64,000 nt of DNA. Origin: Azolla caroliniana (lineage: Eukaryota > Plantae > Polypodiophyta). A program made the translations under genes and the position numbers. Positions 25-58,500 of this stretch are shown here, one piece after another; position 1 is the first letter of the stretch; each line of letters starts with the position of its first letter. The stretch covers positions 14,632,001-14,696,000 of the forward strand of contig JBHGNT010000008.1 in assembly GCA_043228905.1 (NCBI GenBank), given 5' to 3'. A model generated the notes under the pieces. It saw only the letters and a program-made list of their open reading frames with translations. It was not told the DNA's origin and ran no database searches.

Positions 25-3000
25 ATGGACGATTCGTTGGGAGGTATGTTCAAGCTCACGGGCTCCAACTATTCAGTGTGGAAGTCGAAGATGAGGGACA
101 TGCTCGTGGTTAAAGATCTTTGGTTTCCGGTTCAGTTCAGGACAAGAGACCGGACACGATCGACGCCGCGATATGGGAGGTGATGCACATGAAGACAACG
201 GCGTACATCCGGTGCTTCATCAACATGAGCCTATACAACAACTTCAATGAAGAGAGCAAGGCTCATGAGCTCTGGGAGAAGATTGGCATTATGTTTCAGA
301 ACAAAAATGTTGTGAACCAGGTTTCGATATTCCGAAAGCTAGTAAGACTACGGTACCAAGATGGCTCCAGCATGGCGGAGCACATGAATGCCTTCCAGGG
401 GCTGATACACCAGGCAGGCAACATCATTGGAAGTACCTCTCGCCGATGAGGTACTAGCACTACTCCTGCTCAGTTCCCTCCCGAATAGCTGGGAGATGTT
501 GGTTGTCACTTTGGGCAACGCCGGGCCGGAAGGAAAACGGTTATCCCTAGCAAGAGTGAAGTCGAGCTTGCTAGATGAGGAGGCGCGTCGGAAAGACAAG
601 GATACGAGCTCAGACTTCAAAGCGCTCCTTACTGAATCGGAACGCGGAAGACAAAGGAACCGTAGCCCCCAGAACCGGGAAAAGTCGGGGACACGGTCAA
701 AGTCAAGGGGGAGGCCTACTTGCTTCTATTGCGGCAAGCCGGGACACTTCCAGAAGAACTGTCGGCACTTCCGAAAAGACAAGGAAACCGATGGTACTGA
801 TTCGAAGCGGACCCCGGACCGGAACGGTAAAGACTGGAGGGGAACGGATCGGAAGGGAACGACGGCAATCGCGGCAAGTGAAGAAGAGTTGATGCTCATC
901 ACCGAGGAGAGTCAGCTAAACCTTGCCGGCGACGAGATGACCTGGGTGGTCGACTCTGGAGTGTCGTTCCACCTTACCCTGGACCGGAAATGCTTCTCAT
1001 CCTACTCAGCCGGTGATCATGGCTGTGTCCGGATGAGGAATGAAGGTACATGCCGAATTGTCGGCATAGGAGACGTGTTGTTGACAACACCAACCGGATG
1101 CAAGCTGCTGCTGAAGGATGTCTGACACGTTCCGGAGGTTCGTTTGAACCTAATATCAGCCGGTCGGCTAGATGATGAAGGCTACACGGGTAGCATCCGG
1201 AACAGGGTTATGAAGTTCAGCAAAGGGAGCCTGATTGTGGCTCGGGCCCGGAAGGTCAACACGATGTACCTGATGAATGCCCGATTATGCCCGGAGGAAG
1301 TGAACGCGGCATCCGACACTGCCGGTGAGTTGTGGCACAAGAGGTTGTGTCACATGAGCGAGAAGGAGATAAAGAGGCTTGCAGACGACAACCTCATTCA
1401 AGTGAAGAACGTGCACTTGGAGAAGTGCACTGATTGTCTGGCCGGTAAACAAAACCGGACCTCCTTCCGATCGAGGCCACCGATGAGACGTAATGCACCA
1501 CTGGAGTTGGTGCATACTGATGTGTGTCAAGTGGACACGAAGACACATGCAGGATCGCAGTACTTCGTGACGTTCATAGATGACCACAACCGGAAGTTGT
1601 GGGCCACACCGTTGAAGACGAAGGATCAGGTGTTATCCATCTTCAAAGTGCTCCACGTGAGAGTGCAAAGAGAAACCGGCCGGAAGCTGAAGGCGGTTCA
1701 AGCAGATAACGGGGGAGAATACCAGGGGCAGTTCGAGGAGTACTGCCGCTCGAATGGAATCCGGCTCGAATTTACCGTGCCGAAGACGCCGAAACTAAAC
1801 GAGTTGGCCGAGAGGATGAACCAGACCATAATGGAGAGGGACCGGAGTATGCTGGCACATGCAAAATTACCCAAGACGTTTTGGGCTGAGGCACTGTCAA
1901 CAACGACATATGTGATAAACAGATCACCCTCAGTGCCCTTGGATGGAGACACGCCGCAGAGAGTATGGACCGGTAAGGAAGTGTCCTACCGGCATCTGAA
2001 GGTGTTCGGGTGTCTCGCGTACGTGCATGTAGCTAAGGACGGGAGAGGAAAGTTAGATCCAAAGACCCGGCCATGCATATTCCTCGGTTACGACGACGAT
2101 AAGTTCGACTACCGAGTGTGGGACCCGGTCGACAAGAAGGTATTCCGGAGTCGAGATATTATCTTCATGGAGGACAAGACGCTCGCCAACTGGGAGTCGG
2201 AGAAGAAGATAATGAGCTCCAAGTCGACCGGTAAGGATCGATTCTACGATGAGCAGACCCAATCGGCAAGAGACCGGTTAGCACTCGAGGAACCAGCCGG
2301 TGACGGTGAGGATACCGAACCGGCAGAAGAAGAAGTAGAGGAAGCTGAAACCGGAACTGGCCAAGACCCCGAATCGGATTCGGATGAAGAGAAAATGGAG
2401 GAGCCGGTTACCGAAGCCCAAAGACGGAGATATCCTCTCAGAGAGAGAAGGGCCCCTCAGAGATTTCTAGATGCAGAGCATGTGCTGCTAACCGATGAGG
2501 GGGAGCCAGAAAGCTTCGAAGAAGCGAAGGATGACACCCACAACTGCAAATGGTTAAGTGTCATGCAAGATGAGATGGATTCCCTGCACGAGAACCATAC
2601 GTACGAATTGGTGGAGTTGCTGAAAGGAAAGCGGGCACTCCAAAACAAGTGGGTGTACAAGTTGAAACCGGGAGATGCCGGCAAACCCCCGAGATACAAA
2701 GCTAGGATCGTTGTGAAGGGGTTCCAGCAGAAGAAGGGTGTGGACTTCGACGAGATATTTGCCCCGGTAGTAAAGATGACCTCCATCCGGACGGTGCTGA
2801 GTATAGCGGCAAGCATGGACCTCGAGGTAGAGCAGCTGGACATGAAGACGGCATTCCTTCACGGTGACCTCGAAGAGGAGATTTACATGCAGCAACCGGA
2901 AGGATTCGTGGAGAAAGGGAAGGAGCACCTGGTTTGCCGGTTGAAGAAGAGCCTGTACGGACTGAAGCAGGCTCCCCAACAATGGTACCGGAAGTTTGAC

Positions 3001-4066
3001 TCCTTCATGACCGATCAGGGGTACCACAAGACGCAGGCCGATCACTGCGTGTTTGTGAAGAAGTTCGAAGGAGGTAACTTCCTGATACTCCTTCTGTATG
3101 TGGACGACATGTTGATCGTCGGACGAGACCAAGTCAAAATACGGATGTTGAAGAAGGCTCTCAACCGAACCTTCGCAATGAAAGACTTGGGTCCGGCAAG
3201 ATAGATGTTGGGGATGCATATCATCCGGAACCGGCCAACGAAGCAGTTGTGGCTGTCACAGGAGAAATACGTGACAAAGGTGCTTCAGTGGTTCAACGTG
3301 TTAAAAGCGAAACCGGTCAGATCGACACTCCCGGCAAACTGCAGATTATCCGATAAGCAAAGCCCGAAGACGAAAACAGAGAAGGCTGATATGATGAAGG
3401 TTCCATACGCCTCTGCCGGCGGGAGCTTAATGTACGCAATGGTGTGTACCCGACCGGATATAGGATACGCAGTCAGAGTGGTGAGCCGGTTTATGAGCAA
3501 TCCCGGCAAGGAGCACTAGAACGCGGTCAAGTGGATACTCCAGTACTTGAAGGGCACTTCGAACATGTGTCTCCGATTCGGCTCCGGTAAACCTCAACTC
3601 AACGGTTTTACCAGCCGGCTGATGTGGATACCAGCCAGTCTACATCCGGGTATGTAATGACATATGCAGGGGGAGCTGTTTCGTGGCAATCGAGGCTGCA
3701 GAAGACGGTTGCGTTGTCAACCACAGAGGCGCGAAGTACATGGCAGCTGTGGAAGCCGACAAGGAAATAATATGGATGAAGGACTTCATCGGAGAGCTCG
3801 GTATCCGGCAAGATGAATATCGGCTCTATTGCGACAATCAAACTGCCATCCACCTTGCTAAGAATGCGGCCTACCATTCCCGGACGAAGAATATCCAGTG
3901 AAGGTATCACTGGATCCGGGAAAGAGTAGAAGATCGAGAGTTCGCGCTGACGAAGATCCACACGGCCGAGAACGGGTCAGATATGCTGACCAAAGTATTG
4001 ATACCCGACAAGCTGGATGCATGTCGGAAGCGGATCGAACTAGTAAGACATCCCATGCCGGAGTGA
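25..4066 (+). pseudogene. Copia gag-pol polyprotein with frameshifts and stops
   Basis: Zn knuckle CFYCGKPGHFQKNC, protease WVVDSG, GAG-pre-integrase LWHKRLCH, integrase LVHTD/ADNGGEY, RT LLLYVDDM and RNase H across several broken ORFs; stops at about 1123, 3202 and 3517. Confidence 0.95.
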
Positions 4067-4076
4067 AGGGGGAGTT

Positions 4077-4867
4077 TGTTAAGAAACAAGTCCCTCCGGA
4101 TGGGAAGTGAGAAGAATAGTGTCGATGACAAGTACCCGACTACGGAAGACCCGGTGAGAACCGGATGTGGTGTATCCGGCAAGCGCCGGATGACAAGTAC
4201 CCGACTACGGAAGACCCGGTGAGAACCAGATGTGGTGTACCCGGCAAATGCCGGATGACAAGTACCCGGCTACGAAAGACCCGGTGAGAACCGGATGTGG
4301 TGTACTCGGCAAGCGCCGAATGACGAGTACCCGACTACGGAGGACCCGGTGAGAACCGGATGAGGAGTACCCAGCAAGAGCCGGATGGTGAAGGCCCGGT
4401 GAGAAGTGCTCACCGGATGAAGGGACATATTCGTAAATATGTTTCTAAGAGTCCATCGAGGCTATATTTGTAAATAGCCGAAATGTCATATTAGTATAAA
4501 TATGACTTAGGGCAAACTTTGTATAAAATGTTGTCATTCTTGTTGGTGCAAGACTAGAGAGCGCAACAGTGTACAGAGAGAGTGAGAGAGAGGAAGAGGT
4601 TGTTGCCTCTGTTGTAACCGCCGCCTGTGGTGAAGATAGCAAGCTTGAGGTCGTTGCCTCGGTGCTTCACTATTGTACATTGTGATATAGTGATAGTTTG
4701 CAGTCTGTGGGCTGCCGTGGTTTTTTCCCTAGTTTGGGTTTTCCACGTTAACATCCTGTGTTCTCTTCTCTCCTTTGTGTCGTGCATTCATTCACCATTT
4801 TTCTGTGTATGATTCTAAACTCGGTTGTGGCCGAGCATTGCGCATACGGAGCGTGTAGTTCCTGTCA
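4077..4867 (+). repeat. 3' LTR of copia A
   Basis: Starts TGTT after the PPT and ends TGTCA; homologous to LTRs at 51816-52410(-), 55365-60470(+) and 60471-61279(-). Confidence 0.92.
4124..4400 (+). repeat. 65-bp tandem repeat (about 4 copies) in the LTR U3 region
   Basis: Unit GATGACAAGTACCCGACTACGGAAGACCCGGTGAGAACCGG... starts at 4124, 4189, 4254 and 4319. Confidence 0.9.
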
Positions 4868-11107: not shown

Positions 11108-11161
11108 GAACACATAGAAGAGAGGCTATATCAGAACACATAGAAGAGAGAGACAAAGAGG

Positions 11162-12674
11162 ATGGCTGAAATTATTAATGAGCCAATGCATAGGGTAATG
11201 AGTGAAGGAGGAGTGGAAAATGAAGCATGGTTGAGGGCAGTAGAATTGAGCTTATTGTGTTGTTTGCCCATGGCCATAAACACACTCATTAAATTGAAAG
11301 TCTTCAATGTCATGGCCAATACAGATATAGAAAAGGGTATAGAGCGAGGGTTATATTCGACAGAAGAAATAGTATCACGAATGAGTAGTAGTGTCTTAAC
11401 AGATGCCAAGACGAGAGTCTCCGTAGCATTAGATAGACTTTTGAGAGTGGTGGCTAGTCATGGTGTTGTTCATGTGGACATTGGTCATGATCCCTTCACT
11501 AAGCACCCAACGAGAAGGTATGGGCTCAACTTAGTTAGCCAATATTTTGTCCACAATGAATCTTCTTTGGCACCAATGCTTTGTTTAAGTGTAGACCCTA
11601 TTATTATTAAATCTTGGCATATCTTACATGAGGCTGTTCTTGATGGTGCCCAACCCTTCGCCAAGGCCCACGATGGTCTAGATCTTTTTGAATATGGCCA
11701 ACATGATCCACACTTTGGTTCCATCTTCAACACTGCTATGACCAATTGTAGCATTGTCCCCATCCGTGACCTCCTCGACTCTTATCCCACGTGTTTCGAT
11801 GATATAAATATACTCGTTGATGTTGGTGGTGGCCATGGATCATCACTTCGTTTGATCATCTCTCGCTTTCCCAACATTCGTGGTATCAACTTTGACCAAC
11901 CTCATGTCATTTCTCTAGCCCCAAATTATTCAGGTACCCAATTAATGGCAAGCACACCTATTGTCTGATATACATAATGAACTCAAAATGTTGGTGACGA
12001 ATCCAAAATAAGTAATTTTCATATATTTCATTTTACTATTTTTTGATACAGGAATCGAGCATGTGGCAGGTGACATGTTTATTGAAATACCTCAAGCTGA
12101 TGCAATTTTCATGAAGGTTCCAATCCCTCCCTTATTAATTAATATTCATAATCTCATGCATTCTTAAGAACATTATAACCCAAATAATGACAATCTGTAT
12201 TTGAATAAAATATACAATTACAACTCAACTATATATCCTCACCTCAAGAGTTATATATGCATTGACAATCAAAACTTTCACAAATTTATTGGTACCAATA
12301 AACTCATATCATTTTATTATTCTTTTATGTCGACATGACTTTGCACAAAACTAACAAGCTTTAACATTACATAGATGATTTTGCACGATTGGAGTGACGA
12401 ACATTGCATGAAGATATTAGAGAATTGTTACAAAGCATTATCGAATAATGGAAAAGTAATTATAATTGATGCAATCTTGTCGATGGGTTTCGAAATGGAC
12501 TTGAGATCTCGCGTTGGTTACCAATACGATCTTCATATGTTTGCCCAAACCATTGGAGGTAGAGAACGAACTCGAGAAGAGCTTGAGAATCTTGCTAAAA
12601 GTGTTGGTTTTGCTCGTCTTGAAGTAAAATCCAAGCTAAATGAATATAGTGTCATGGAGCTATATAAGTTGTAG
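11162..12674 (+). CDS. SAM-dependent class II (COMT-like) O-methyltransferase; exons 11162-11933, 12052-12116, 12375-12674; 378 aa
   Basis: N-terminal dimerisation domain; motifs LVDVGGGHG, GINFDQPHV, HVAGDMF, DAIFMK, ILHDWSDEHC, GGRERT; GT-AG introns 11934-12051 and 12117-12374 join in frame without stops. Confidence 0.93.
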
Positions 12675-24768: not shown

Positions 24769-26712
24769 TGTTAGGAACAGGTACTTCTGGATGGGAAGAG
24801 AAGAGTCGAATCGATGAATGACCTCTTTCAAGGCCGAAAATCGATTTTCCGAAATCATTTTTTCGAAATCGAAAACCAAAATCGAGAACCGATCTATGAC
24901 CGATTCGGAGGACTATATTTGTGAATAGTCCAAATGTGCGCATGTGGGCTATGTATGTAAATAGCCAAAAAGTTGTATACATATAAATACAAATAGGGCA
25001 AACTTTATAAGAGAAGTTGTTGATCATTGTTGTATAGTTAGAGAATGTAGTTGCGTCTATAACCGTGTAAAAGGGAGAGAGAGAGTGAGAGTAGTAACTC
25101 TACAACCATCGATTTGTTGACGAAGACGATCTCGAGGTTGTTGACTCCGAGTTTCTTATTGTACTTCTCCTCTCATTCTAGTAATTCTGTTTCTTGGGGT
25201 TTCTGGACCCCGATGGTTTTTCCCTTTCGGGTTTTCCACGTAAAAGATATTGTGTCCCTATACTTGTGCTTTTTTGCTTTCTCGTTTTTTTGTGTGTACA
25301 CTATCTTTCTTGATCTTTGTACTCGAACATTACAAGTGAAACCGTTTGTGGCCGGTCACAATCGTAAGAAAGTGGTATCAAAGAGATGGAAGACTTGTTC
25401 GGCGGCATGTTCAACTTAACCGGCTCCAACTACTCAGTGTGGAAGTCGAAGATGAGAGACATGCTTGTGTGCAAAGACCTCTGGCTGCCGGTGCAGTTCG
25501 AAGATAAAAGGCCAGACAAGATCGATGCATCGACTTGGGAAGTGTTGCATCTGAAGGCGACAACGTACATAAGGTGTTTTATAGACATGAGTCTATACAA
25601 CAACTTTGGTGAAGAAACAGAAGCCGACATCCTCTAGAAGAAGATAGACGTAATGTTCGAGAACAAGAATGTCGTGAACAGAGTCTCAATTTTCAGGAAA
25701 ATCGTGAGACTTCAGTATGAAGACGGCTCCAGCATGGCAGAGCATATTAATGTCTTCCAAGGAATGATGAATCAAACCACCTCTCTAGAAGTACCTCTTG
25801 TTGACGAGGTATTAGCCTTATTGTTGTTGGGATCCCTTCCAGACAATTGGGAAACACTCATTGTCACATTGGGCCACATAGGACCGCAAAGGAAGCATTT
25901 ATCCCTAGAGCAGGTGAAGTCGAGCTTACTAAATGAGGAAGCTCTTCGGAAGGACCGAGAGTCCAATGTTAACCCGAAGGCCTTAGTCACGGAGAGTGAA
26001 ACAAATCAAGGAAGTGGTCGAAATCAAAGTCCCCATAATCGAGATAAGTCAGGGACAAGGTCAAAGTCGAGGGGAAGGTCCGCGTGCTTCTACTGTGGAA
26101 AGCCGAGGCACTTCCAAAAGAATTGCTGACATTTCCGAAAGGAAAAAGGGGAGCTGATAGTGTGCAACCGAAGAAGATTTTGGACAGCAAGACCACCTTG
26201 GCAATTGTGACAAGTGAGGAGGAGTTGTTGCTCATTAGTGAGTAAAATGAAGTGAACCTTGTCAGCGATGAATCAACGTGGGTAGTCAATTCGGGTGCAT
26301 CATTCCACCTGACCCCTGATCGGAAATATGTCTCATCTTTTAGAGTCGGAGATCTTGGATCTGTAAAGATGGGAAATGAAGGAGCATGCTGAATCATTGA
26401 GATTGGAGATGTGCGTTTGACAACATCAACTGGGTGCAGACTTCTGTTGAGAGATGTTCAACACGTTCTGGAAGTCAAATTGAATTTGATATTGGCCGAT
26501 TGGCTGGATGATGAAGGCTACATGGGTAGCATCCGAAGTGGTGTCATGACGTTTTGCAAGGAAGCCTAATCATGACCCGAGCTGGAAAAACTAACACATT
26601 GTACCTGATGCCTGCTCGATTATGCCGAAACGAGGTAAATGTGGCAGCCGACACAACTGCTAAGTTGTGGCACAAGAGGCTATGTCACATGAGCCAAAAG
26701 GGGATGCGAAAA
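24769..26712 (+). mobile_element. Copia B, 5' part (5' LTR 24769-~25370, PBS 25373-25383, gag-PR up to GAG-pre-integrase)
   Basis: LTR starts TGTTAGG; PBS TGGTATCAAAG; gag MEDLFGGMFNLTGSNY at 25386; ends at LWHKRLCHMSQKGMRK. Confidence 0.92.
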
Positions 26713-27112
26713 CCCCGGGGGCTTTACTGTCATAACTTGTATGATAGCATGTGAGTTCATCAAAAGGGGTTAAATTAACCATTGAGATACATAATGTATA
26801 TATATAAGGGTATTAATAAATATATAAACAATATATTTACATAAGGGTATTATCAATTATGCTGGAGAAAAATATTACATATGCCTGACATGAAATATTA
26901 GATATTTCAATGAGATAGTAAAGAATATATTGTGCAAACAATTGTCAAATTTGGAGTAACATACATACATATATACATATACATGCATTATTTAAGCATA
27001 TATACCTACATTTAAACATTACATCCATGAATATGTGTATATATACATTATACCCATGCTTCACCCCCCACCCCAACAACACTTTTGGCACACCCGGTGG
27101 GACATAAGGGTA

Positions 27113-30053
27113 TGTGTTACCTGTAAGAATATACGGGGAGGCATAAGGGTATGTGTAATGATGTGGTTGATGTGTATGTGGAAAGTAAATGAGTATGTGA
27201 GGATGAGTATGTGTGAGCACATGCACAATTATGTGCATGTGACAAGAGTGTAATGGTCGTCTCTTTTGTAACAGTCATTATGTATTATATAAACCCCTTA
27301 TGGGGAATCTAATGGATATACAATTTCCCCCTTCATTTTGTATCATTTTCTATTTGTATTTCTCTCTAGCTCTTGCTCTTTATTGTAACCCCCTTGAGAG
27401 GGGGGTGAAGCCATTCTAGGCCTCACCCCCTACCCCAACAACACTTTTGGCACGCCCGAATGGACGACCCTCCCTTGAGAAGAAGTCTCACTCTCCCTCT
27501 CTCCATCTCTCTATGTGTTGGTTTGTCTCTCTGTTAGGGAGTGATGCATCACTCTCTGTTAGAGAATGATGCAGACCATACATTTTGATTTCTGAGTCGT
27601 GCGATATTTTCTACTAGTAACCTGCATAAGTAAAGCTACTCATATGATGTTCTTGTTACTTATCTTATTTCTCTAATTAGTTCTATGTCTGTTTGTTTTC
27701 TGTTGTGGGGATTCATCGAATTCTTCTTCTCATTAAAGTCTTATCATCTCAATCATCTTTTGCTCACTTGGAGGCAGAAACTCTGGCTTCTGGATGGAAA
27801 CAATCTCTCTTCTAGCTTGGTCTAATTCAGAGACATCCAGAGATGGCTGCTGGTGTGAGTTCTTATCAGGAAGGCAATGGAGTTCATGATGAGCGTGTGA
27901 GAGAACGAGAGGAAGAAGAGATCTATTTGAAGCATAGATGAAGAATAGAGAAAGAAGACACGAGGAGAGCAACCATGGTGTCTTCAAAGAAGAAAACATG
28001 CATCTATGACCTCATTATTGTAGCTTCTCTCTCTTCCATTTTCAGTACTTTCCTCTGATCATCGCCATCCCTCAATGGTGTCTAGTGTCAAAATCCATGT
28101 GTTCTCATCCCAATCCCCATACCACTTGCCACGAGGCAGATCTGTTATGCTGTCGTCTACAACTCCATCGCCATCCATGGGAAGCTCGAAGAGATTGGAT
28201 GGCCTGAAGAACTCGATTGGCACCAGTCGATCTCTATTACCTTTGACATCAATGATGCAGAGGTCAATGTGAACACGATGATATCACTCAAAAAGATGGC
28301 TTTCTACACTCAAGCTCTTGACGAAAGTCATGAAGGTTTCATGAAGTTCCAAGTCTCTCAAAATTCCTTTTCTGAGACCTGTTGACTAGTACGCAGAGAT
28401 GATGAAGAGCGGTGTCCATATGGTGGAGGTGAAAGAGTTGCTTTTGTCTGAGTAGAAGCAAATGAAAAGGATGGTGGCCATAGCCATGTGGTGTGCACAT
28501 CCATGGCTGAACATACGGCCATGGCCAGCCGGACAGTCTGTGAGACAGCTGATAAAATGAAGGTCCAGCAACCAGCAACCGACGAACGACAATGACAACG
28601 GCCGGATAGAAGGTTTGACAGCCAACCGAACAGAGAGACAGTCGGCCAGAGAAATGGTGACAACCGTCAAACAAAGGGTCCCATAGGTGGCCGTCGGACA
28701 GAGCCGACAGAGACAGCCCATGGAGAGACGACTATGGACAGCCTACGAACCGAGACGGCCAGAGACAGACAGCAGGCGGGAGAAGAAGGTGATAATCAGA
28801 GAATGAAGAAGAAGAAGAAGATCATGACCACCGCCACCACAGAACAGAAGTAGAGAAGAAAAAGAACAAGAAGAAAGGGTATACATGAGGGACACATCAT
28901 TGATGTCACCACAAAATCAATTCCTTTAGCAAACTCTCTACACTCGTCTCTCTATGATATCAATTCGATGCAGAGAACCTAGGCAAAACCATATGAGGCC
29001 TCACATCAAGCGCAAAGTTCTGGATGGAAGATGCACCGCAAGTGGGCGGCCACAGTAAAGCTCATCCCGAGCGGACAGCCACACGGCCAAGACGTGTGGC
29101 AGAGAGGCGCGATTGAGAGAGCGGTTGAGAATATGGCCAACACGAGCAGCCGAGACGCGTGGCCGAGAGTACAGCCGAGACGCATGGCCGAGAGGACGAC
29201 CGTGATGCGCGACCAAGAGTACGGCCGAGATGCGCGACCAAGAGTACGGCCGAGTGACAACCGCGAAGACAGCCAAGCAAAAGACGAAGAGATAAGACGA
29301 AAGAGAAGAGGGTTATGAAGAGAAAATTTCAAAATTTGGAGGGTAGAATACAAAATTTTGAATATTAAAGGGCCAAAAATAAAATTTCAAAAAATTTGAG
29401 GGTAAAAAATTTTAAAGACCAAAGGGTAAAAAATATAAAACTCACTTCACATGATGAAAGAAAGAATACACAAATGCACAACATGATTTCACGACCCATG
29501 CCACATTGTACTAGCCGATTGATGTATGATCCAATCGCGACTTGTGCTAACTGAATAAGAAGGTTCGAGTCAAGCAAAGCTCTAATCGAAGTTATCGATC
29601 GTAGAGCAGTGATCCGGTCGAGGGATTTCCGACTGGAGTTCCGGTCGAGAAGAATTGCCATGGTGAGTGGATTCACTGTGCAATGCACTGTCCCACAGGC
29701 GTGCCATGTGTTACCCGTAAGAATATACGAGGAGGCATACGGGTATGTGTATTGATGTGGTTGATGTGTATGTGGAAAGTAAATGAGTATGTGAGGATGA
29801 GTATGTGTGAGCACATGCACAATTATGTGCATGTGACAAGAGTGTAACGGTCGTCTCTTTTGTAACGATCATTATTACCGTTACATTATGTATTATATAA
29901 ACCCCTTATGGGGCATCTAATGGATATACAATTTCCCCCCTCTCATCTTTTGTCATTTTCTATTTGTATTTCTCTCTAGCTCTTGCTCTTTATCGTAACC
30001 CCCTTGGGAGGGGGGTGAAGCCATTCTAGGCCTCACCCCCCACCCCAACAACA
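27113..30053 (+). mobile_element. Non-autonomous LTR element (LTRs 27113-27443 and 29707-30053) with a tRNA-Arg PBS and an inverted PBS in place of the PPT
   Basis: About 340-bp direct repeats TG..CA; PBS TGGCACGCCCGAATGGAC at 27448-27465; GTCCCACAGGCGTGCCA at 29690-29706; no pol motifs seen inside. Confidence 0.85.
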
Positions 30054-37782: not shown

Positions 37783-40700
37783 TTTCATGATATGGCAAGA
37801 CTCGAACCCATGACCTTATGTTACATGGGTCGAGCTTTTGACCATTAGACTATATGTTGTAATACAAAGGATATTATTTTCATTTAGGTTTTACTATAGA
37901 AAATTGATGTATATTCTAGATTTCTCTGGAACATTCTAGAAACTTCAGGAGTAATCTTGAGAACACTATAAAAGGAGGCACAAGGCATTATTTTGAGCCA
38001 AATCGGTTCAAACTATCAGGAGCAGTACTAAGACAAAGAAGTATTGTCAGGAACAGTACTAAAACAGAGAAGGAATTAGTACTAAAAGATGAGGATTAGT
38101 ACTAAGGGAGGTGTAGAACTCTTGAGAGAGTGAGTGGGAGAGAGAAAGAGAGAGAGAATGAGGATAACAAAAGATATATATTATGTTATGGGAATATACA
38201 ATAGTAGCTAGGTGGCTTAAGACTGGTGTTGAACCGATTTGGTTCGAAATAATGCCTTGTGCCTCCTTTTATAGTGTTCTCAGGAGTATTCTTGAAGTTT
38301 CTAGAATGTTCTAGAGAAATCTGGAATATACATCAATTTTCTCTAGTAAAACCTAAATGAAAATAATATTCTTCATATTACAACATATAGTTTAATGGTC
38401 AAGATCTCGACCCATGTAACATAAGGTCATGGGTTTGAGTCTTGTCATATCATGACATTATGCCCCTTTTAAAACGACAAGTGTCACGAGTAGTTTTGGA
38501 TTGAGGACCCGGTTTGTCTGGATATTGAAGATGGAAGTCTTCAAAAAGAGCATGAGCATTGACCACATTCTCTATTGGTTCCCAATTACGCTCTTTGGGA
38601 CTATATCCTAGCCAATTGACTAAATAGTAGAGGTTGTTGCGAACAATCTTGGAATCGAGGATGGCGGCAACGTCGTACTCAGGTCCATCTTCAAGGTCAA
38701 TTGGGGGTGGAGGTTGTTTAATACGACCTGGGATGGTGCTATCTTGATAGGGTTCAAGGAGAGAACTATGAAACACCGGATGTATCCGAAGTTGTGGAGG
38801 TAGATTGAGACAAAAAGCGACATCATTAATTTTTCCGATAATACGGAAAGTACCTAATCGCCGGTAATCCAACTTCTCGCATTGGCGAGTAGTCTTGATG
38901 TGTCATTGTAGTAGCCACACTCGATCTCCAATGTGAAAATTGGATGAAAGCCGATGACGATCCGCGTAAACCTTGTGTGTTTGTTGAGCTTGCTGTAGAT
39001 GAGTATATAAATCCCCTTGTATCTTACGTAGCCGCTCCAAATGATCCTCTACACAAGGATTTGTGGGTAACTCTGGGGTTTCAAATACACACCATCGGGG
39101 GTGACAACCCGTGTAAGCATAAAATGGTGTCACCTTTGTCGATGAGTGGACAGAGTTATTATACGCAAATTCGGCTAAGTGGAGAATATCCGCCCAATCT
39201 TGGCATTGGTAATGGTTCTAATAAACCATATGGATGATGCCTTGGCATTTTTGCTCTGCAACATGTATCACAAGTCCGAACAAAATCTTCAACAAACATC
39301 GGCGGTTTCTTCATTGGAGATTTCCTTAGTACATGGCAAGAATTGGGCCATCTTCGTATATCGATCTACTACTGTTAAGATCACATCGAATCCCTTAGAG
39401 ACCGGAAGATCTGTGATGAAATCTAGGGCAATGGATTGCCATGGCTTGCTTGGAATTGGTAATGGTTCTAATAAACCATATGGATGATGCCTTGGCATTT
39501 TTGCTCTGCAACATGTATCACAAGTCCGAACAAAATCTTCGACAAACTTCGGCGGTTTCTTCACTGGAGATTTCCTTAGTACATGGCAAGAATTGGGCCA
39601 TCTTCATATATCGATCTACTACTGTTAAGATCGCATCGAATCCCTTAGAGACCGGAAGATCTGTGATGAAATCTAGGGCAATGGATTGCCATGGCTTGCT
39701 TGGAATTGGTAATGGTTCTAATAAACCATATGGATGATGCCTTGGCATTTTTGCTCTGCAACATGTATCACAAGTCTGAACAAAATCTTCGACAAACTTC
39801 GACGGTTTCTTCACTGGAGATTTCCTTAGTACATGGCAAGAATTGGGCCATCTTCGTATATCGATCTACTATTGTTAAGATCGCATCGAATCCCTTAGAG
39901 ACCGGAAGATCTGTGATGAAATCTAGGGCAATGGATTGCCATGGCTTGCTTGGAATTGGTAATGGTTCTAATAAACCATATGGATGATGCCTTGGCATTT
40001 TTGCTCTGCAACATGTATCACAAGTCCGCACAAAATCTTCGACAAACTTCGACGATTTCTTCATTGGAGATTTCCTTGGTACATGGCAGGAATTGGGCCA
40101 TCTTCGTATATCGATCTACTACTGTTAAGATCGCATCGAATCCCTTAGAGACCGTAAGATCTGTGATGAAATCTAGGGCAATGGATTGCCATGGCTTGCT
40201 TGGAATTGGCAATGGTTCTAATAAACCATATGGATGATGCCTTGGCCTTTTTGCTCTGCAACATGTATCACAAGTCTGAATAAAATCTTCGACAAATTGT
40301 CACATATGGGGCCACTAGAAGGATCGTTGTACTAAATTTAGTGTTTTAGTACTACCAAAATGCCCAGTTGTATATGTGTCATGATAGTTTTGGACTACTT
40401 GAAGGCGACAAGTACCATTAGGAACATACAAGAGTTTCTTAAAGAATAGTAATCCATCATGACATTTGAATTGTCGATAGTCCGTACCTGGTTGTTGCGA
40501 CTTTGAACAAGATGCTCGAGAGGGATCAATTTGTGCTAGAATGGCTTGAGCGAAAACATCTGTCTTCAAGTCCTCACGTATAGTATTGATAACGTGGGAA
40601 TCCAAGGGCATACCAAAGACCTGCGTTGCTTGCAGTCGTGCCGGTCCCAAGATTACTTGCTTTTTGTTATCGAAAGCTGGCTCGTCGGGACATGGTGCTA

Positions 40701-42063: not shown

Positions 42064-42150
42064 TGTAAAAAGAACGTGCGGAAGCAACAGAAAACAGAAC
42101 GTAGGAAAAAAACACAGGTTTAATGGAGAGCTTGGACACACACAGTACAC

Positions 42151-42188
<38 letters not shown>

Positions 42189-45100
42189 GCACACAATTCT
42201 CTTCAAGATAATAATCCTCAATCTATACATAGAATGTGTTGAGTGAGCACTTTTATATAAGTCCATACGGACTGACAGAAGTACTGACACGTACTTCAAC
42301 GCTCATAAATGAGATCTACACTAACTCTCAAAATATATTCCTACGCGGAATATCTTTCCAACGGCCTCGTGGTTTACACACCGCTACGGCTTCTTGTTAC
42401 GCACTGGTTTACGCACCCGGTTTACACGTCGGTCCGGCCTAACCGATTGGTCCCAATCGATCCGGTTCTCGGCTTGCACAGCCGATCTGACCAATGTTGA
42501 GCTTGTATCTCAACACTCCCCCTCAAGCTCAACTTGAGGCTCTTCTTGTTTTTCCAGATCACCACTCCGGTTTCTTCTGGCTTCACGCCTCGCTCGTGCT
42601 CCTCGTCCTGTTCGATTCCGCACGCCTCGAGCCTTCCAGTCGGCATGTGTGCTCGTGCGGCCCTTCTCAGCTCCCTTGCTGTCGTGGTGGTGGCGCCTCT
42701 TCGGTTGCCCTTTCTTCCGTTTGGCCCTCGGTTGATTCAACGTCTCCGAATCAAACATCTGAACCAAATCGGCTTCCTCCGATCGGTTTTCGCTCTCGTC
42801 TGAGTTGACTATCTCCCACTCATCTTTGGTCTTCTCGCCCTTCTTGGCTTCATCTCCCCTATGCTTGGCTGGCTTCCGCTCTTTCTTTTGGCTGCTGCCC
42901 TCACGTCCGTTTTCGGACTCTTTCACGGATCCGCCCTCGGGCTTGTTCAACCGACCCGAAATCGAAATCGTCATTTGACTCGGCGTCACGGTGTCTTCCG
43001 CTCCTTTCATGCTCCCTTCCGTGGTCATCCGGGACTGCTCTCCCCCTCGAGTTCGGCACATCTAAGTGTCGTAACCCAAGCGCACCCGAGAATTGCCGCA
43101 ACTTGTCGAAACCAAGGGGCTTGGTGAAAATGTCGGGGGTCTGCTGATCTGTCGGAACATACTGAAGTTCGACTTCACCGGAGAGGACACGCTCGTGGAC
43201 AAAGTGGTAGTGCACCTCAATGTGCTTAGTCTGGGTGTGGAAGATAGGGTTCTTCGCTAGCTGGATGCTACTGAGGTTGTCGCAGTAGATTGTCGTCGGA
43301 TCGGACACCTGCACCTACAGATCGTTAAGTAGCCGTTTCAGCCAGATGGCTTCGCATGTGGCAATAGCTGCTCCTCTATACTCGGCTTCAGTGCTCGATA
43401 GTGCAACTATCAGCTGCTTCCTTCTACTCCACGCGATCGCAACGCTCCCAAGAGAGAACGCGAATCCCGATGTGGATCGACAATCGCCGGCTTTTCCGAC
43501 CCAATCAGCATTGGTATAACCGACTAATTGCGCAGTAGTATCGGTCCAATATAGTAGCCCTCGGTCCTTAGTGCCATAGACATACCGGAGTACGCGTTGT
43601 GCACACTGAAGGTGCTCCTCGGTTGGCCGCACCATGAAATGACTAATCACGCGGACTGGGTAACTGAGGTCTGGTCGAGTGATAGTCTAGTATATGAGGC
43701 TTCTGACAATCTGTCGAAACCTCTTCAGGTCGCAAACATTTCCGGAGTTGGGGCGAAGCTTGACGATTCTATCCAGAGCAATCGAGACGGACTTACAATC
43801 TGCCATCTCAAACTTGAAGGGCATACCCAGCATGTAATGCCGTTGGGGGTACGGATCACTTCGATCCCGAGGAAGTAATGAAGGTTCCACAGGTCCTTCA
43901 TGTCAAATGATGCCGCGAGCTGGAGTTTTACGCGGTCAATTTCACCGAGGTCGGCGCCGATGATGACCAAGTCATCAACATAAAGTAAAATACTAACCGG
44001 CTTGAGATGACCTTTCCGAATGAACAGTGAAGAGTCCGATTTGGACGTCGCAAATCCCATCCTAAGCAATCGCTGCGTGATTTTCACTTTCCAAGCACGT
44101 GGGGCTTGCTTTAGTCCGTAAAGGGACTTCTTCAACCGGCAGACCGCTGAAGTGTTCATTCCGGAGTGAAATCCGGGGGGCTGTACCATGTACACTAGTT
44201 CCTCAAGCTCGCCTTGTAGGAATGCATTCTTGACATCCATTTGATGTAAATGCCACCCCTTCGCTGCAACTATGGCTAGCAGAACACGCATGGTAGTCAT
44301 CTTCGGGACAGGCGCAAAGGTCTCGTCGTAGTCCACCCTATGCTTCTGCGCGTAGCCTTTCGCTACAAACTGGGCCTTGTATTGGTTGACCGAGCCATCG
44401 GTGTTGTACTAGACCTTGAACACCCACCTACATCCAATCGGCTTCACACCCTTCGGTGCGTCAACTAGGTTCTAGGTTTCATTCTTTGCTAATGTCCGCA
44501 TCTCTTCCTCCATTGCGGCATGCCAATTTGCGTCCTTCGTCGCTTCTGCGTAGCTCTCCAGCTCCCGCATTTCCGCTACACGCGTCATGTACGCATAGTG
44601 ATGCGCCATGTACTCGTTGTATCCGAACCACACAAAAGGGTTCTTTTGGCGGGTAGATCGGCGTAATTGCTCATTAGCCGATGTTGAGGCTTTCTTGGTT
44701 GATGCGGACTTCGCTCTTGGAGGCCCGTCATCGCTCTCCTCGGAGACGGATTTGCATCGATCCGACTCGCCCCTGTCCGTGCCGTACTTCGGCATCTTCT
44801 TCTTCCCTTTTGCCTTGCGCGTAAACGGTCTCCTCGGCTTCCTGCGCGGGGAATGCACGACCGAGTCTCCACTACTCGCCAGCTCTTCTTCGGACTGGTC
44901 AAACCAACCCAATCTCTTGTTCGGTCCACTTAGCCGAAGTGAAATTTGACTCTCATCGAGGGTCTTGATTTCGTGGTCATCCAGAGGCATTTCAACCTCG
45001 ATGACCTCATCGTCAGAACTCAGGTTCGGAGATCCGGAGTTGGAGTTGAGGTCCGGTGTCGGAGGCAAGTACCAGGACACGGACTCGTCAAACACAACAT

Positions 45101-47519
45101 CGCGGCTCACGCAAGGTTGTTTGGTTCGGGGGTTATAACACTTATAACCCTTCAGTTCGTCCAAATAGCCGACCAAGATACACTCCTCTGCTTTCGCGTC
45201 CAACTTCCTCCGTTTCTCCTTCAGCACATGCACATACGCAATGCTACCGAAAACTCTCAAGTGTTGTAGATTCGGCTTTCTTCCGAAATACAGCTCATAT
45301 GCCGACACTTTGTCTCCGATCCGATTCTGGATGTAGACCGCGGTTCCTACCGCTTCAGCCCAACAAAAGTTGGGCAAGATCTTTTCTTCTAGCATCGCAT
45401 TGCCCGCGCCGCTTCCACAACTGACCGATTTTTCCTTTTGCCTACGCCGTTTTGCTCCGGCGTATACTTGCAACTGAATTCACGCCGAATTCCCATTTGT
45501 TGTAGATAACTGTTGAATTGGCTAGAAAAGTACTCTTTTCTGCCATCGGACCGCAGACACTTGATCTTTCTCCATGTTTCTCTTTCTACGAAGCTTTTGA
45601 GGTCCCGAAAACAGTCGAAGACTTCATTCTTCTTTTCAATTAGATAGATCCACGTGTGCCGCGTGTAGTCGTCGATGAAGGAGACAAAATATCGACTCCC
45701 ACCAAGACTAACGTTCTGTGCCGGCCCCCATACATCTGAGTGTATCAAGTTGAGCTTGTTCCGGCTCCGGTTACGCTCGTTGGGAAAACGAAGTCGGTGT
45801 TGCGTCCCTAGCTGGCAGGCTTCACAAATTTGGGCCTTGCGGTCATTGAATTTGGCCAATCCGAACACAACTTGTTTCGATTGCAAGTCCTGAAGCCTTT
45901 GATAGTGGACATGGCCTATCCGCTTGTGCCACAAGTCGATATCCGACGCGACTTTTTGTGCTTTTGCGAACATTGCGGTGCCAACGTCATTGGTGTCGAG
46001 GATAAACATCCTCCCGTCTCTACGCCCCTACGCAATAACTTGGCCTTCCTCCTCGATGAAGCACCCGAGATGCGTGAACCAGACTTGCATCCCCTAGTCG
46101 ACGATCTGCCCGACCGACACCAGATTCTTCATGATTGTTGGGGTGTGTAACACGTTCATGAGTTTCCCTTTTTGCCCGACATGGCTCAGGGGAACTTCAC
46201 CGACATTCTCGATCGGATGCGGAGTGTCGTCTCCTTTTGCGACTACTCGTGATTGCATCGGTTTCTCAAGGTATGAGAACCACTCCTTATGGCTCGTCAT
46301 GTGGTTTGACGCACCGGAGTCAACGTACCACACCTCGTCCAATTTCGGGGTGGTCTTCTTCATTGAGTTTGCCTTGTGTCTCGTCACGAAGGCTGCCCCC
46401 TTTCCGACTTTCTCAGATCCTTCGGCGTAGTGCGATCGCTGTCGATTTCCTTTGTTGGTTTGTCCGGATCCGAATCCGGTTTTCTCCGAATCGGCGCGCT
46501 TTTCCAGCACTCCCTCTCCTTGTGGCCTTTCTTGCCACAATACCAGCATTCCACAACAGATTTCCCTTGCCTGTTCTCGACACCTCGACTCTCTTTGTTT
46601 CCGGAGGGTCTCGAATTGCTGTCGGCATCACTACAGTGCCTTCTTCCTTGATCCCGTCGACCGCCTCCATTGCGCACCGACTCGCCTTGTCCGCCACGAC
46701 CATGGGGCCTGTCTCCCTCTGTGTACAACATCTTGCTATCAGCATGCGTACTCGTCGACGCACCCGCCTGATTCTCCTCTATAAGGAGCATCGACTATAG
46801 GTCGAAAAACGACGACATATTTTCCCTTGTGCACACAACAATTCGGAACACTCCGAACTTCAACGCCAGTCCCCTGAGATAGATTTGCACCATCTCGCCT
46901 TCCTCGATGTTCACATTGATGGAGGCTAAGGAGTCGCACATATCTTTGATCTTCGAGGTGTAATCAGCCATCGACAAGTCGCGTTGTCGTAAGTTGCTCA
47001 GCTCCTGTCAGAGTTAGAGCTTTCTGGATGTGGTGCTTGTGGCGAAAATCTTTTTCAGATTTCCCCAAGCATCCTTCAGTGTTTTCGTATCCCCAATATA
47101 GCTCAGAAGTTGTTTGCCAACACAAGACGCGAAGCAGTAGAGAACTCTGCTCGCGGATAGTTCCCAAGCCGGGAAGTCTTTGTGTGTCGAATCGGGTGTT
47201 GTGTATTTTGCTCCGTCGACATAGCTCCAATATCCATGCCCGAGCAGGTAATGGTGCATCTTGTACGACCAAGACGCGTAGTTGTTTCTGTCGAGCTTCT
47301 TGGTTGGAAGCAAGCTAGCCATGCCTCTATCCATTTTGTTTTTCCTGTTTTTTATTTTTACGAAGGTTAGGTTTTCTTCTCGAGCTAAGGTCGGCTGCAG
47401 AGGTTCTCAACCCTCGCACTTTGATACCATGTAAAAAGAACAAAGTGCGGAAGCAACAGAAAACAGAACGTTGGAAAAAAACACAAGTTTAATGGAGAGC
47501 TTGGACACACATAGTACGC

Positions 47520-47565
<46 letters not shown>

Positions 47566-47879
47566 GCACACAACTCTCTTCAAGATAATAATACTCAATC
47601 TGTGCATAGAATGTGCTCAGTGAGCACTTTTATACAAGTCCATACGGACTGACAGAAGTACTGACACGTACTTCAATGCTCATAAATGAGCTCTACACTA
47701 ACTCCCAAAATATATTCCTACGCGGAATATCTTTCCAATGGCCTCACGGTTTACGCACTGCTACGGCTTCTTGTTGCGCACTAGTTTACGCGCCGGTCCG
47801 CCCTAACCAATTAGTCCCAACCGATCCGGTTCTCGGCTTGCACAACCGATCTGGCCAATGTTGAGCTTGTATCTCAACA
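42064..47879 (-). mobile_element. Full-length Ty1/copia element C with degenerate ORF
   Basis: 5' LTR 47430-47879; 3' LTR 42064-42515; PBS TGGTATCAAAG ending at 47429; PPT 42516-42527; TSD ATAGG on both sides; gag/PR/INT/RT/RH motifs from 47334 to 42901. Confidence 0.97.
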
Positions 47880-52437: not shown

Positions 52438-54327
52438 AAAAATTGCTGAGGAAAATATGATACCGGAGATGAAGAACGTGCAACTCAAGAAGTGAAAATA
52501 TAATACCGGAGATGAAAAATGTGCAACTCAAGAAGTGTATTGATTGGTTGGTCGACAAACAAAACCAAACCCCCTTCCAATTGAATTCCCCAATGAGGAA
52601 GAAAATGTTGTTGGAACTCGTGCATACAGATGTATGCTACGTGGATACAAAGTCGCATGTTGGTCCACAGTATTTCGTGACCTTCATAGAAGACTGTAGC
52701 CGGAAGTTGTGGGCTTTTGTGCTGAAGACGAAGGATCAAGTGTTATCCATCTTCAAAGAGTTCCAAGCGAGGGCCGAGAGGGAAACCGACCTACAACTAA
52801 AGGCAGTCCGAGCGGACAATGGCGGAGATTACCGCGGACCATTCGAAGAATATTGCCGAGCGCAAGGAATATGGCTCATGTATACTGTGCCGAAGATGCC
52901 AGAGCATAACGGGATAGCCGAGAGGATGAACCGGAACGTAATGGAGAGGGTCCAAAGTATGCTTGCACATGCAAAGTTACCGAAGATGTTCTGGGCTGAG
53001 GCGCTGATGACGATAACATATCTGATAAACTGATCACCCTCAGTACCATTGGATGGTGATATTCCACAATGGGTGTGGAGCGGCAAAGACGTTTCGTACC
53101 GACATTTGAGGGTGTTTGGCTGTCTTGCCTATGTGCATGTTGCAAAGGACCATATGGGGAAGTTGGACCCGAAATCTCGGCCATGTATATTTCTCGGCTA
53201 CGGCAACGACAAATTGGGCTATCGGCTATGGGACTTAGCCGAGAAGAAGGTGATTAGGAGCGGAGACATCATCTTCATGGAAGAGAAGAAGATTGTCGAT
53301 TGGGAGATTCAAAATAAGTCTCCAACTACTGAATTGAACCGAGTTAATGCTGGACTAAATCGAGTAGAAGTTGATTCAATCGAAATGGAATCCAAGCTAG
53401 TTGGCGTATCTAATACTCGGCAAAATCAAGAACTGACTGAAGAACAAGGGGAACCGGGTGAACGAGAGACCGAATTTGACTCGGCTGAGAAACGTAATTT
53501 GACCTTGCCGAATGGAGGCCGAAGATATCCCCTAAGAGAGAGAAGGCCCCCGCGAAGATTTCCTGAAAAGAAGCACGTACTATTAACCGATGAGGGGGAG
53601 CCGAAAAGCTTTGAAGAAGCTAAACGAGATACCCACAATTGAGAGTGGTTAAGTGACATGCAAGAGGAGATGAATTCCTTGCATGAGAACCACACATATG
53701 AATTGACCAAGTTGCCGAAGGAGAGAAGGGCACTCTGGAATAAGTGGCTTCCAACAGAAGAAAGGTGTCGATTTCGACGAGATATTTTCCCTAGTAGTGA
53801 AGATGACGTCAATCCGAACAATGTTGAGCATAGCGGCCAACATGGATCTCGAAGTCGAGCAACTGGACGTCAAGTCTACCTTCCTCCATGGCGATTTGGA
53901 GGAAGAGATATACATGCACTATTTGGAAGGATATGTGGAGAAAGGTAAAGACAACCTCGTATGCCAATTGAGGAAGAGCTTATATGGGCTAAAGCAAGCA
54001 CCTCAGCAATGGTACCGAAAATTTGAATCCTTCATTACCGACAACGGGTACCACAAAACACAAGCCGATCCCTACGTGTTTGTGAAGAAGTTTGATGGAG
54101 GAAATTTCCTCATACTCCTGCTGTACGTGGACGACACACTAATTGTTGAACGAGACCCGAGGAAAATCAGAAGCTTGAAGAAGGCCTTCAGAATGTCATT
54201 CTCGATGAAAGATATGGGTCCGGCAAAACAAAACTTGGGTATGCACATTGTTTGGGATTGAACAAAGAAATTATTATGGTTTTCACAAGAGAAGTACGTG
54301 ACAAACGTGCTCCAAAGATTCAATACA
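52438..54327 (+). mobile_element. Copia B, 3' part (integrase-RT), truncated; contains a 43-bp tandem duplication at 52451-52536
   Basis: IAEENMIPEMKNVQLKKC...LELVHTDV...LLLYVDD; collinear with copia A downstream of the 26712 breakpoint. Confidence 0.92.
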
Positions 54328-55528: not shown

Positions 55529-58500
55529 TGTCGCGAAAATACGATGAGGACACGCGAACTTGAGGCAGGACCTCGGGGCCTCCGACTAGAGGATAATCAC
55601 ATTCGTGCGTTTATATTTTTAACAATTAACGGAAAGAGTAAATTTAATAATTTTCATTAACAAAGGGAAAAGAAATTACAATTTGTCCCAAGATTGAGAC
55701 TTAGATGTTTTAGGTTTACTAAGATTAATAGAAAAGAAAAATTAGGGGTTTTGAGAGATATGGCTTCCGTAGGGAAAATTAGGATTAGGTTATATGAGTA
55801 TTATGGCTTCCGTAGGGAAGATTAGGGTTTTTGAGTGTTATGGCTTCCGTAGGGAAGATTAGGGTTTTTGAGTGTTATGACTTCCGTAGGGAAGATTAGG
55901 GTTTATGAGAGATATGGCTTCCCTAAGATAAGGGAGTTGAGAAGGAAAAGAAAAATATGGAGAGAGTCTGAGTGTAGGAAACCAAATGGAATATATATGG
56001 AGTTCTCCCTTGATCATAGCCTTTCCACTTTTTGTTGCATGGCCTCTACTTTTAGTTGCTTAGCTTTTTCTTTTAGTTGCATCTATTTTTAGTTGCTTAG
56101 CTTTTTCTTTTAGTTGCATCTATTTTTAGTTGCATGGCTTTTTCGTTTAGTTGCATGTGACCGTGCACATGACCTTTACTTTTTGCATGCACTCCAACTT
56201 TAGTTGCTTGTGTCCACATGGCCTTTACTTTAATTCTCTTCACTTTACTTTAGTTTGTTGCATGATCCCATCTTCCGTCCGCCCGCGTCCAACCTCGTCT
56301 GGTAGCCAGTTCCGCCCGAGTGCCGAATCCCTCGCCGACCGGTTCCATTTTGCTTGCCGGTTGTAGTTCCGGTTTTGCTTGCCGGCCAATTCTGGTTCCG
56401 ATTTTGGTTGCCAGTTCCGGTTCTAGTTTTGCTTACTGGCCGGTTTCTTGTTTGCATACCGGCCGGTTTCCGGTTCCGGTTTGCTTGCCGGCTTGTTTCC
56501 GGTTTGCATACCGGCCGGTTTCCGGATTTGTTTACCGGACCCGTTTTCCGGATTTGCTTACCGGCCAGTTTCTGGATTTGTTTACCGGACTCGTTTTCCG
56601 AATTTGCTTACCAGCCGGTTTCCGGATTTGTTTACCGGACGATTTCCAGTTTTAGGGTATTTGGCCACCATCATCCATCAAGACAAACTGGCCAAAGTGC
56701 TCTTAGCACAAATGAAAATTGAGGGAGCTCAAGGTGCTTATATAGCCAGGGCCTTAACTTCCCTATATATGTGGGATAGTTCTAATTTCCCTATCTTCTC
56801 AAACTTTATTTTCACATAACTTGATATGTATTTCTCCATTTTGTATATAGTAGAAAACGTTTTGAAGCTCTTGAGTATATAATCTTTCTATAGTAAGCTA
56901 CTAATCTAATCTATAATAATTATTTCATTATTTTTTTACATAGTGTGTGAAGATTCACACGACATTCGCCCCCACTAAACCTGCACATCCACCGGTATGT
57001 GCCAATTGTGATGAGGCTCCATTTTTGTTTACTTTAATTTTTCGTTGATGTACCACAATCGCCATTGCCATCCGATCCACCATATTCTTCGTTTACTCTT
57101 TGCATTTCCATAACCGGTTGTCATGGCTCTCTTTGCTCCTATTGAGCATAATGCTTTATGCCTCGTGCATGTGTCACCTTCATTTCGACCATCTCCTTGG
57201 TCATTTAACTTTCTTTTATCATTCTTTCTTGTTCCATGCATGTCTTTCAAAGGCCTTATCGAAGTACTATTGTTGAGTACTCTTAGCGATTCATTATTTA
57301 GCGTCATGCTCTCCTCTAGGTGCTTAAGTGACCACACCACATGTTTCCCACTTTGTCCACTTTCTTGGTATACTCTTGTGTTGGAATTGACCATGACTTC
57401 TACGCTACTATTATCCTTGTTAGATTTTGTGATTACATCTTTCGTATCCGCTTGGCCCACTTGGCCCACACTTTTGATTTTTGAGGTTTGCATGGTCTCT
57501 TTGTCACACACATTTGCTTTTGTCTTCATGCTTTGCTTGACCTCTTTGTCGTACACATGGACTTTCGTCATTTTGCTTTGCTTTACTTCCTCGTTGCACA
57601 CATTGGCTTTAACCCTTGCTTCCTCGCTGCCATCGTCCTTCGCTTGGGTCTTACATCGATTAATGCCCAAGTCTCTCAAACAAGTGTGGAGGAATTTTGT
57701 AGTTTGGCATTGCCTTTGTCGTGCTACTCTTTGCCACTTCCATCTTATGGTTGTTCATGTTGGAGTTGATCTTTGTTTTCTCACCGCCACCTTCCGTCTC
57801 TTGGTCTTACATCGGTTAATGCCCAAGTCTCAAGAACCTTTGTGGGGAGAGTCTCTTCATCATCATCGTCTACCCTCTTTGGCTTGACGTCTCTTTCTTC
57901 TTTGCATGTGTTAGCCTCGGCCTTCACTTCCTCGCCGCCACCTTCTGTCTCTTGGGTCTCATGTTTGCTTTCCGACGCATCTGCCCAAGTCTCTAGAACA
58001 AGTGTGGAAAAAGTCTTGACACGGCCATCCGCCATTGACTGGTCTTTAGCCACCTCTGACTCAATGTCGTTTCTCGTGGCTACCTCCTCAATCATGTTGA
58101 CGTTACACTTTTCATCTCCCTTGATCATGTAAGCTTTGCTCATGCTAGCACCTTCATCACTTGATGTTTCAGACACAATGTGTGTTCCAAAACATTTGCC
58201 CTTACTTGAAGTGGCATTCGCCACCCTCGATTCATTTGTTTCATTCTTCGCCATTGTTTCTTTGCAAGACGAGAAGGCTTCTTGTTCCACATCTTCTCCC
58301 ATGGTTACATTGTGGTACCGAACTTGGGCCTTTGCATCAACCGTAACATTAATCCGCATTTTTTGGGAGGCCTCTTCTTCCTCGCTCATCATTTGCTTCA
58401 ATTTTTGCTCCTTTTAAAGCTTCTCTTCAGCCTCAACTTGCGCCTTTAAGTTCTCGAATGCCTCTTCCATCAAGACTTCTATGTCGAGTATTGTTGAATC

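Follow-up and report, generated by a model that had tools for sequence, protein, structure and literature searches.

In LTR retrotransposons and retroviruses, priming of the plus strand from a polypurine tract (PPT) is regarded as the rule, whereas variation is known for the primers of the minus strand. The question raised by the locus described here is how an LTR element makes its plus strand when the position of the PPT is taken by a sequence resembling the 3' end of a tRNA. The locus lies in a stretch of 64,000 nucleotides of Azolla caroliniana DNA (contig JBHGNT010000008.1), hereafter the window, which is rich in repeats and contains copia, gypsy and LINE remnants.

Structure of the element and of its 3' junction

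The whole element is 2.94 kb long and non-coding (Table 1). Its LTRs are direct repeats with TG...CA ends, and 95% of their aligned bases are identical (314 matches, 11 transitions, 4 transversions and one 16-nt gap; K2P 0.047). The initial annotation had the 17-mer that precedes the 3' LTR in direct contact with it; the motif is indeed present at 29690-29706, but the LTR begins at 29709 and not at 29707. The dinucleotide between them varies among 60 sequences (TG in 35, GG in 16, TA in 5 and AG in 4), the host DNA flanking the 5' LTR joins at TGTTA in loci L053 and L021, and unrelated loose ends were found before 27115 in 23 contigs of sequencing run X2 (agreement 0.37), so that the LTR is considered to start at TGTTA (27115 and 29709). 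The 3' part of the LTR can fold into a strong hairpin (27400-27435 and 30006-30041); in relatives a comparable inverted repeat is conserved, its loop sequence being different.

Table 1. Coordinates of the features of the LTR element and of its 5' side in the window
Feature	Position	Strand	Remarks
Extra LTR 3' (U5) end fragment	27058..27081	+	repeat family D10, 87% to 27420-27465
18-nt PBS-like copy	27086..27103	+	tRNA geometry complete; 1 nt longer than the 3' motif
11-nt filler	27104..27114	+	recurs inside the LTR and in AT-rich flank; repeat families D11, D7
5' LTR	27115..27443	+	329 bp, TGTT...AACA; boundary from spacer variation, flank joins and loose ends
TATA-like box	27286-27293	+	within the 5' LTR
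Internal region	27444..29708	+	no retroelement protein domains; non-autonomous
PBS core	27448..27457	+	4 nt past the LTR; 15/18 to the 18-nt type out to 27465
25-bp repeats	29084-29246		within the internal region
TΨC-arm-like box	29667..29676	+	7/10 to the commonest form GTGGGTTCGA
4-bp hairpin, 3-nt loop	29678..29688	+	splits the tRNA likeness; covariation
17-nt tRNA-3'-end-like motif ending CCA	29690..29706	+	inverted PBS on the - strand, PPT position
2-nt spacer, CCA to 3' LTR	29707..29708	+	variable between families
3' LTR	29709..30053	+	345 bp; from LTR-LTR alignment

No retroelement family was found by Pfam in the 19 stop-to-stop frames of the internal region, which gave one unrelated match below the cut-off, and neither a gypsy pol profile nor the extra ORFs of relatives (see below) matched the element interior; the window copy is therefore regarded as non-autonomous. 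A target-site duplication (TSD) was sought at its flanks and none was found, the flanks being different, while in the search for TSDs in relatives 0 of the 20 loci inspected contained both outer flanks.

The motif at 29690-29706 reads GTCCCACAGGCGTGCCA and is the reverse complement of a primer binding site (PBS), so that it has tRNA sense in the genomic RNA. With up to 2 mismatches allowed, the window contains it a single time (shuffle mean 0.01; 1 of 100 shuffles). The initial claim that no purine tract stands at the 3' LTR was confirmed, since the 20 nt preceding it are 45% purine, versus 75% in a copia element (42064-47879) and 70% in a gypsy-type element (55529-60243) of the same window. 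These two have ordinary purine tracts and clean TSDs, and the motif occupies exactly the site where they carry their tracts. Its spacer of 2 nt is comparable to the gap of 1-7 nt at the PBS end.

On the upstream side, the 17-mer is adjoined by an invariant T, followed by the hairpin and then by a 10-nt box. Of 54 sequences, 52 matched GTGGGTTCGA at 7/10 or better, as against one of the 54 when a control window was used, and the box appeared as the consensus of the loose ends in every run examined. In the hairpin, changes on both sides were observed at all four pairs (eight cells; 0 of 500 shuffles; 87.5% paired) and controls slid along the alignment scored lower, in a test based on 22 of 60 sequences, hand-picked to span groups, and inflated by their kinship. 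In tRNAs, the 18-nt end corresponds to positions 59-76, with CCCAC as the 3' strand of the T stem, whose partner strand is GTGGG, and the TΨC loop begins with TTCGA. The box fits the 5' T-stem strand plus the TΨC loop, extending the tRNA likeness past the search query. Applied to motif and box, this geometry identifies the 3' site, on sequence grounds, as a copy of the 3' third of a tRNA, lacking one base and interrupted by the hairpin between positions 58 and 59. The tRNA behind it is presumably tRNA-Arg(UCU). A host tRNA was found neither by ARAGORN in the window and the 59 loci described below, nor by the motif scan of viral contigs or in the literature, and Rfam gave six chance-level matches, so that the match of the 3' site to a tRNA is one of geometry.

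Conservation of the junction

A scan of public metagenome contigs for the junction gave 61 matches at 59 loci, which come from one set of related assemblies and were selected for the motif by the scan itself. The 52 sequences with at least 40 LTR bases, window included, formed 15 LTR-start groups. As a check free of any pattern, contigs of five runs, with four organism labels and from three studies, were compared with the window, one of these runs being possibly the source of the window itself. The depth peaked at the junction in all of them. In four (594, 745, 550 and 226 contigs) the summed depth, which is not a copy number, showed a plateau at 29687-29714 with a steep drop on both sides; in run X1 it reached 244,000-271,000 on the plateau, versus 2,400 at 29655 and 15,000 at 29743. 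Alternative letters within the motif amounted to 1-5% per position, mostly C>T and G>A, with one position at 6-10%, and no indels in the motif were present among the rows listed for the four runs. According to the loose ends listed for these runs, LTRs differ after 29712 and the upstream box is constant before 29678.

The DNA fetched contained 65 LTR-start-like sites: 56 follow the exact motif and were thus selected by the query, three follow near-exact copies that were not selected, and six follow other sequence. None of the 65, including those 56 query-selected, has a purine tract directly before the LTR start. A 12-mer with at least 11 purines was present in 6 of the 55 sequences having 60 nt upstream and in no case adjoined the LTR; four of the six (L006, L025, L028 and L031) form one group, with the purine-rich 12-mer around 40 nt upstream. 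The junction was absent from the viral contigs scanned. A further candidate, an LTR-start-like 22-mer near 36049 in the window, was discarded as a chance match within a LINE-like region.

The arrangement of CCA, 2 nt and LTR is common to about 15 LTR groups. Those groups, the depth peak and the 0/65 PPTs exclude the opposite case considered in the initial annotation, a junction unique to this copy with a normal PPT in its relatives. The replacement of the PPT is real and conserved, a family trait rather than a one-off event. In a few loci (L004, L009, L021, L042 and L045) the order is motif-LTR-PBS, with one LTR common to two internal regions; these may be tandem arrays, circles or collapsed assemblies.

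Priming of the two strands

With respect to the minus strand, the PBS initially assigned to 27448-27465, which reads TGGCACGCCCGAATGGAC, is present past the 5' LTR, but only as a core of 10-11 nt. Relatives have a PBS at the same place, the bases past the core being family-specific, and the PBS types of this group of elements are presumably tRNA-Arg types. The window copy is rearranged upstream of its 5' LTR. An LTR end comes first, with 33 nt identical to the end of the LTR in L011, and after a gap of 4 nt there follow the 18-nt PBS-like copy and the 11-nt filler. The 18-nt form, with its extra base, was found past two LTR ends, namely at 27086-27103 in the window and past the 3' LTR of L008 (14 nt, then flank), and a shorter case of the 18-nt type lies past an unrelated LTR in L005. 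These copies look like the product of plus-strand read-through into the primer, as in Ty3, and the one at 27086..27103 is likely such a copy of the tRNA that primed the minus strand. The whole of 27058-27114 looks like a captured plus-strand strong-stop end, which would explain the absent TSD. Since the 18-nt type is one base longer than the 3' motif, the latter would not have primed those minus strands, and because the read-through copies have the tRNA-type form and not that of the motif, a host tRNA is the likely primer of the minus strand. Loci L024, L048 and L010/L030 have a different forward PBS past the LTR, presumably for another tRNA-Arg, and yet the same 3' site; with one LTR copy per contig they could be collapsed assemblies, so that the link between this PBS and the motif holds at the family level.

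For the plus strand, we lean towards priming by a host tRNA that anneals to the minus-strand DNA at the 3' site, since this would explain the position of the motif, its near invariance, the extension into the T arm and the independence from the PBS. Following minus-strand synthesis by a host tRNA from the short PBS, as the 18-nt read-through copies suggest, the minus-strand DNA could pair with the 3' third of a tRNA through the blocks observed, of 10 nt, 7 nt and the 10-nt TΨC-arm box. One tRNA base would bulge, and the hairpin, whose existence is indicated by covariation, would be looped out at the passage from tRNA position 59 to 58. The CCA end of the tRNA would then start plus-strand DNA 2 nt outside the LTR, an offset that could give the usual short overhang for integrase, and enzymes would be supplied by longer relatives that share the site and carry the 3' extra ORF. 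The predicted pairing of an 18-nt tRNA-type end with the minus-strand site amounts to -33 to -35 kcal/mol, a rough value obtained with RNA parameters. The suggestion of a second tRNA priming at U3 stands as the best reading and has gained the box and the covarying hairpin, with the correction that a gap of 2 nt would separate the end of the primer from the LTR. It would imply, with slightly better than even confidence on our part, that a successful plant LTR lineage has dropped the PPT and has both strands primed by host tRNAs, that of the plus strand on a three-block site split by a hairpin. If both strands are tRNA-primed, as seems slightly more plausible than otherwise, both cDNA ends would be made by the same chemistry.

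The main alternative, which we consider possible though doubtful, is that the plus strand is primed by the element's own tRNA-like, CCA-ended RNA, surviving RNase H with the aid of the hairpin as a non-purine PPT. Position and 2-nt spacer are those of a PPT, and for around half of 13 sequences representing the groups a T-arm-like stem enclosing the hairpin can be folded in the sense RNA. The box moreover pairs with the CCCAC of the motif in cis and could therefore serve such a fold, although the 5' side of this outer stem varies without compensation (79% paired, with the 3' side fixed by the query). The 18-nt tRNA type precedes the LTR start at 0 of the 65 sites, that is, at no U3 end, and no insertion at the U3 junction was found among the rows listed for the four runs, in which contigs drop rare variants. 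The sole aberrant U3-end molecule found, L033 (1-190), consists of an inverted LTR start followed by the element-type 17 nt plus 1, ending exactly at the hairpin base and joined to the 3' part of the LTR, PBS and leader. It carries the 17-nt form of the element and fits an RNA primer of this kind, but also a minus strand stalled at the hairpin. The near-invariant tRNA likeness of the 17 nt amid diverging LTRs would be left unexplained, and an RNA/DNA hybrid of mixed bases would be a normal substrate for RNase H, as far as can be drawn from the available parts of two papers (PMC5371799, PMC13332604).

It is unlikely that the motif acts instead by pairing with the element's own PBS, for circularisation or dimerisation of the RNA or as a self-made minus-strand primer, the plus strand being started otherwise. 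Most groups have a 10-bp complementarity, with predicted energies of -19 to -24 kcal/mol, but the groups with the other PBS (L024, L048 and L010/L030) keep the same motif and pair poorly (-8 to -12 kcal/mol, again a rough estimate with RNA parameters). Complementarity between base 8 of the motif and base 10 of the PBS was observed in 21 of 23 pairs, which represent few independent lineages, the window copy being one of the two exceptions; this concordance fits direct pairing or one tRNA variant at both sites. In addition, the read-through copies are of the 18-nt type and not that of the motif, the plus strand would be left without a primer, and pairing accounts neither for the 7 additional conserved bases nor for the box or the fixed distance of 2 nt to the LTR.

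Replication from transcripts of either strand, with the motif as PBS of an antisense RNA started in the 3' LTR, had also been put forward and found little support; we regard it as very unlikely. The two ends of the element mirror each other, either strand reading ACA, a short gap and TGG, and in L020 an inverted LTR start is joined to forward PBS and leader (oriented coordinates ~350-960 and 1975-2905), but this single contig, of low coverage and with a second inverted, head-to-head LTR junction, could be an artefact. The TATA-like box and, in the long relatives, the 3' extra ORFs all lie on the + strand, and an antisense RNA would still need a primer for its second strand. No RNA run was among those listed as containing the stretch. 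Finally, a one-off inversion, nested fragment or assembly error, to which the rearranged 5' end and the absent TSD of the window copy might point, is hardly conceivable, since this junction recurs in 59 loci, in about 15 LTR groups and in five runs, and the hairpin shows compensatory changes.

Priming of the plus strand by a tRNA can be compared with what has been described for known systems. In Ty3 and HIV-1 a purine-rich RNA fragment primes the plus strand, and the resistance of the PPT to RNase H depends on its purine-rich structure, according to the sections available of the corresponding papers (PMC5371799, PMC13332604). The element resembles these canonical systems in its TG...CA LTRs, in the tRNA-type PBS inwards of the 5' LTR and in a primer site near the 3' LTR, as well as Ty3 in the short PBS and the apparent plus-strand read-through into the primer tRNA, as presented in the accessible text (PMC5371799), and departs from them in having at the PPT position a sequence of 45% purine with a tRNA-sense motif and a hairpin. 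In HIV-1, loss of the 3' PPT yields circles and no new primer, in the part of the report at hand (PMC13332604). The bipartite PBS of Ty3 and Ty1, in which separated blocks engage the acceptor stem and the TΨC arm of the tRNA, offers a closer likeness. One of the Ty3 blocks is situated close to the RNA 3' end, and Ty3 retains its PPT; as far as the available sections describe, it is in the RNA that these blocks are complementary to the tRNA, and their role is in priming the minus strand (PMC5371799). The 3' blocks of the window element, in contrast, have tRNA sense, and only minus-strand DNA can pair with the tRNA.

Three kinds of minus-strand primer were distinguished by Neumann et al. (PMC6317226), and in the portion of that paper available to us neither replacement of the PPT nor a second tRNA site is described. 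The same portion lists tRNA-Arg PBSs for Ogre, Retand and TatIII and tRNA-Asp/Asn/Ala as the dominant PBS of Athila; the long relatives of the window element may resemble the plant non-chromovirus OTA gypsy elements (Athila, Tat/Ogre/Retand) in having a long 3' region with an extra ORF (PMC6317226). The readings based on the element's own RNA or on pairing with the PBS recall the self-priming elements Tf1, Tcn1 and TAR, since RNA of the element would replace the standard primer; in those, from what the available text states, it is the minus-strand primer that has changed, and it derives from the 5' end (PMC6317226), whereas here the plus-strand site has changed and the minus strand appears to be tRNA-primed. 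Finally, the TRIMs Helenus, Ajax and Cassandra are also non-autonomous LTR elements with tRNA- or 5S-derived sequence, although, in the parts of the source that are available, they measure <1 kb, keep the PPT and have that sequence inside the LTR as a promoter, stated not to act in priming (PMC10886601). The window element differs from these TRIMs, Helenus included, in its 2.94 kb, in the motif outside the LTR, in having no PPT and in that neither ARAGORN nor Rfam gave a tRNA. No description of a PPT replaced by a tRNA-like site was found in the literature searched, outside which lie most subscription journals and repeat-database reports, and both leading mechanisms would be new relative to it.

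If true, this natural exception, which spans multiple families, would mean that exact ends can still be made without a PPT, reverse transcriptase starting either on a DNA template with a tRNA as primer or from a structured RNA of non-purine type. Such elements would allow the reasons for the strong conservation of the PPT to be tested directly and suggest a route by which it can be lost in a lineage, and annotation tools based on the PPT will miss or mis-orient them.

Coding relatives and other elements of the window

An extra (second) ORF is found on the + strand upstream of the motif in 13 of the 59 loci. It is long, with coiled coils, has six longer homologues and matched no Pfam family at cut-off; a weak look-alike of Athila ORF1 in the Atlas (score 0.79) is a lead only. 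A pol gene linked to the motif was found in none of the 59 loci. The pol of L024 was considered as a possible autonomous partner and rejected, since it has a purine tract and a 1.3-kb LTR of its own at its end and is nested upstream; it belongs to the family of the gypsy-type element at 55529-60243. Searches with this pol gave named matches from Riccia and Adiantum, which concern that other family only and show a non-seed-plant context for it. Three more loci of the family were not used. L060-L062 are short contigs in two bacterial genome records with a plant-type gypsy pol (57-60% to the query), and probably represent contamination.

The element at 55529-60243, on the - strand, is separate from the one analysed here and has LTRs of 1.4 kb, a 4-bp CCGG TSD, following the NCGN pattern listed for Phygy, and no obvious tRNA-type PBS past its 5' LTR. 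The likeness to Phygy in NCGN TSD and pol belongs to this element and its relative in L024, unlike the motif element. In both (1-3744 in L024), the purine tract is preceded by a short conserved inverted repeat, which was also observed after pol in L060.

Regarding the rest of the window, two copia copies (1332-4867 and 60471-64000) are ~87% alike and in opposite orientation. The third copy, at 52513-54323, is older, and a fragment is present at 25386-26705. The ORF at 11144-11968 encodes what we take, by eye, to be a plant O-methyltransferase-like protein. A tandem array with a period of 250 bp and copies 94-97% alike was observed at 39199-40296, within a gypsy-like region.
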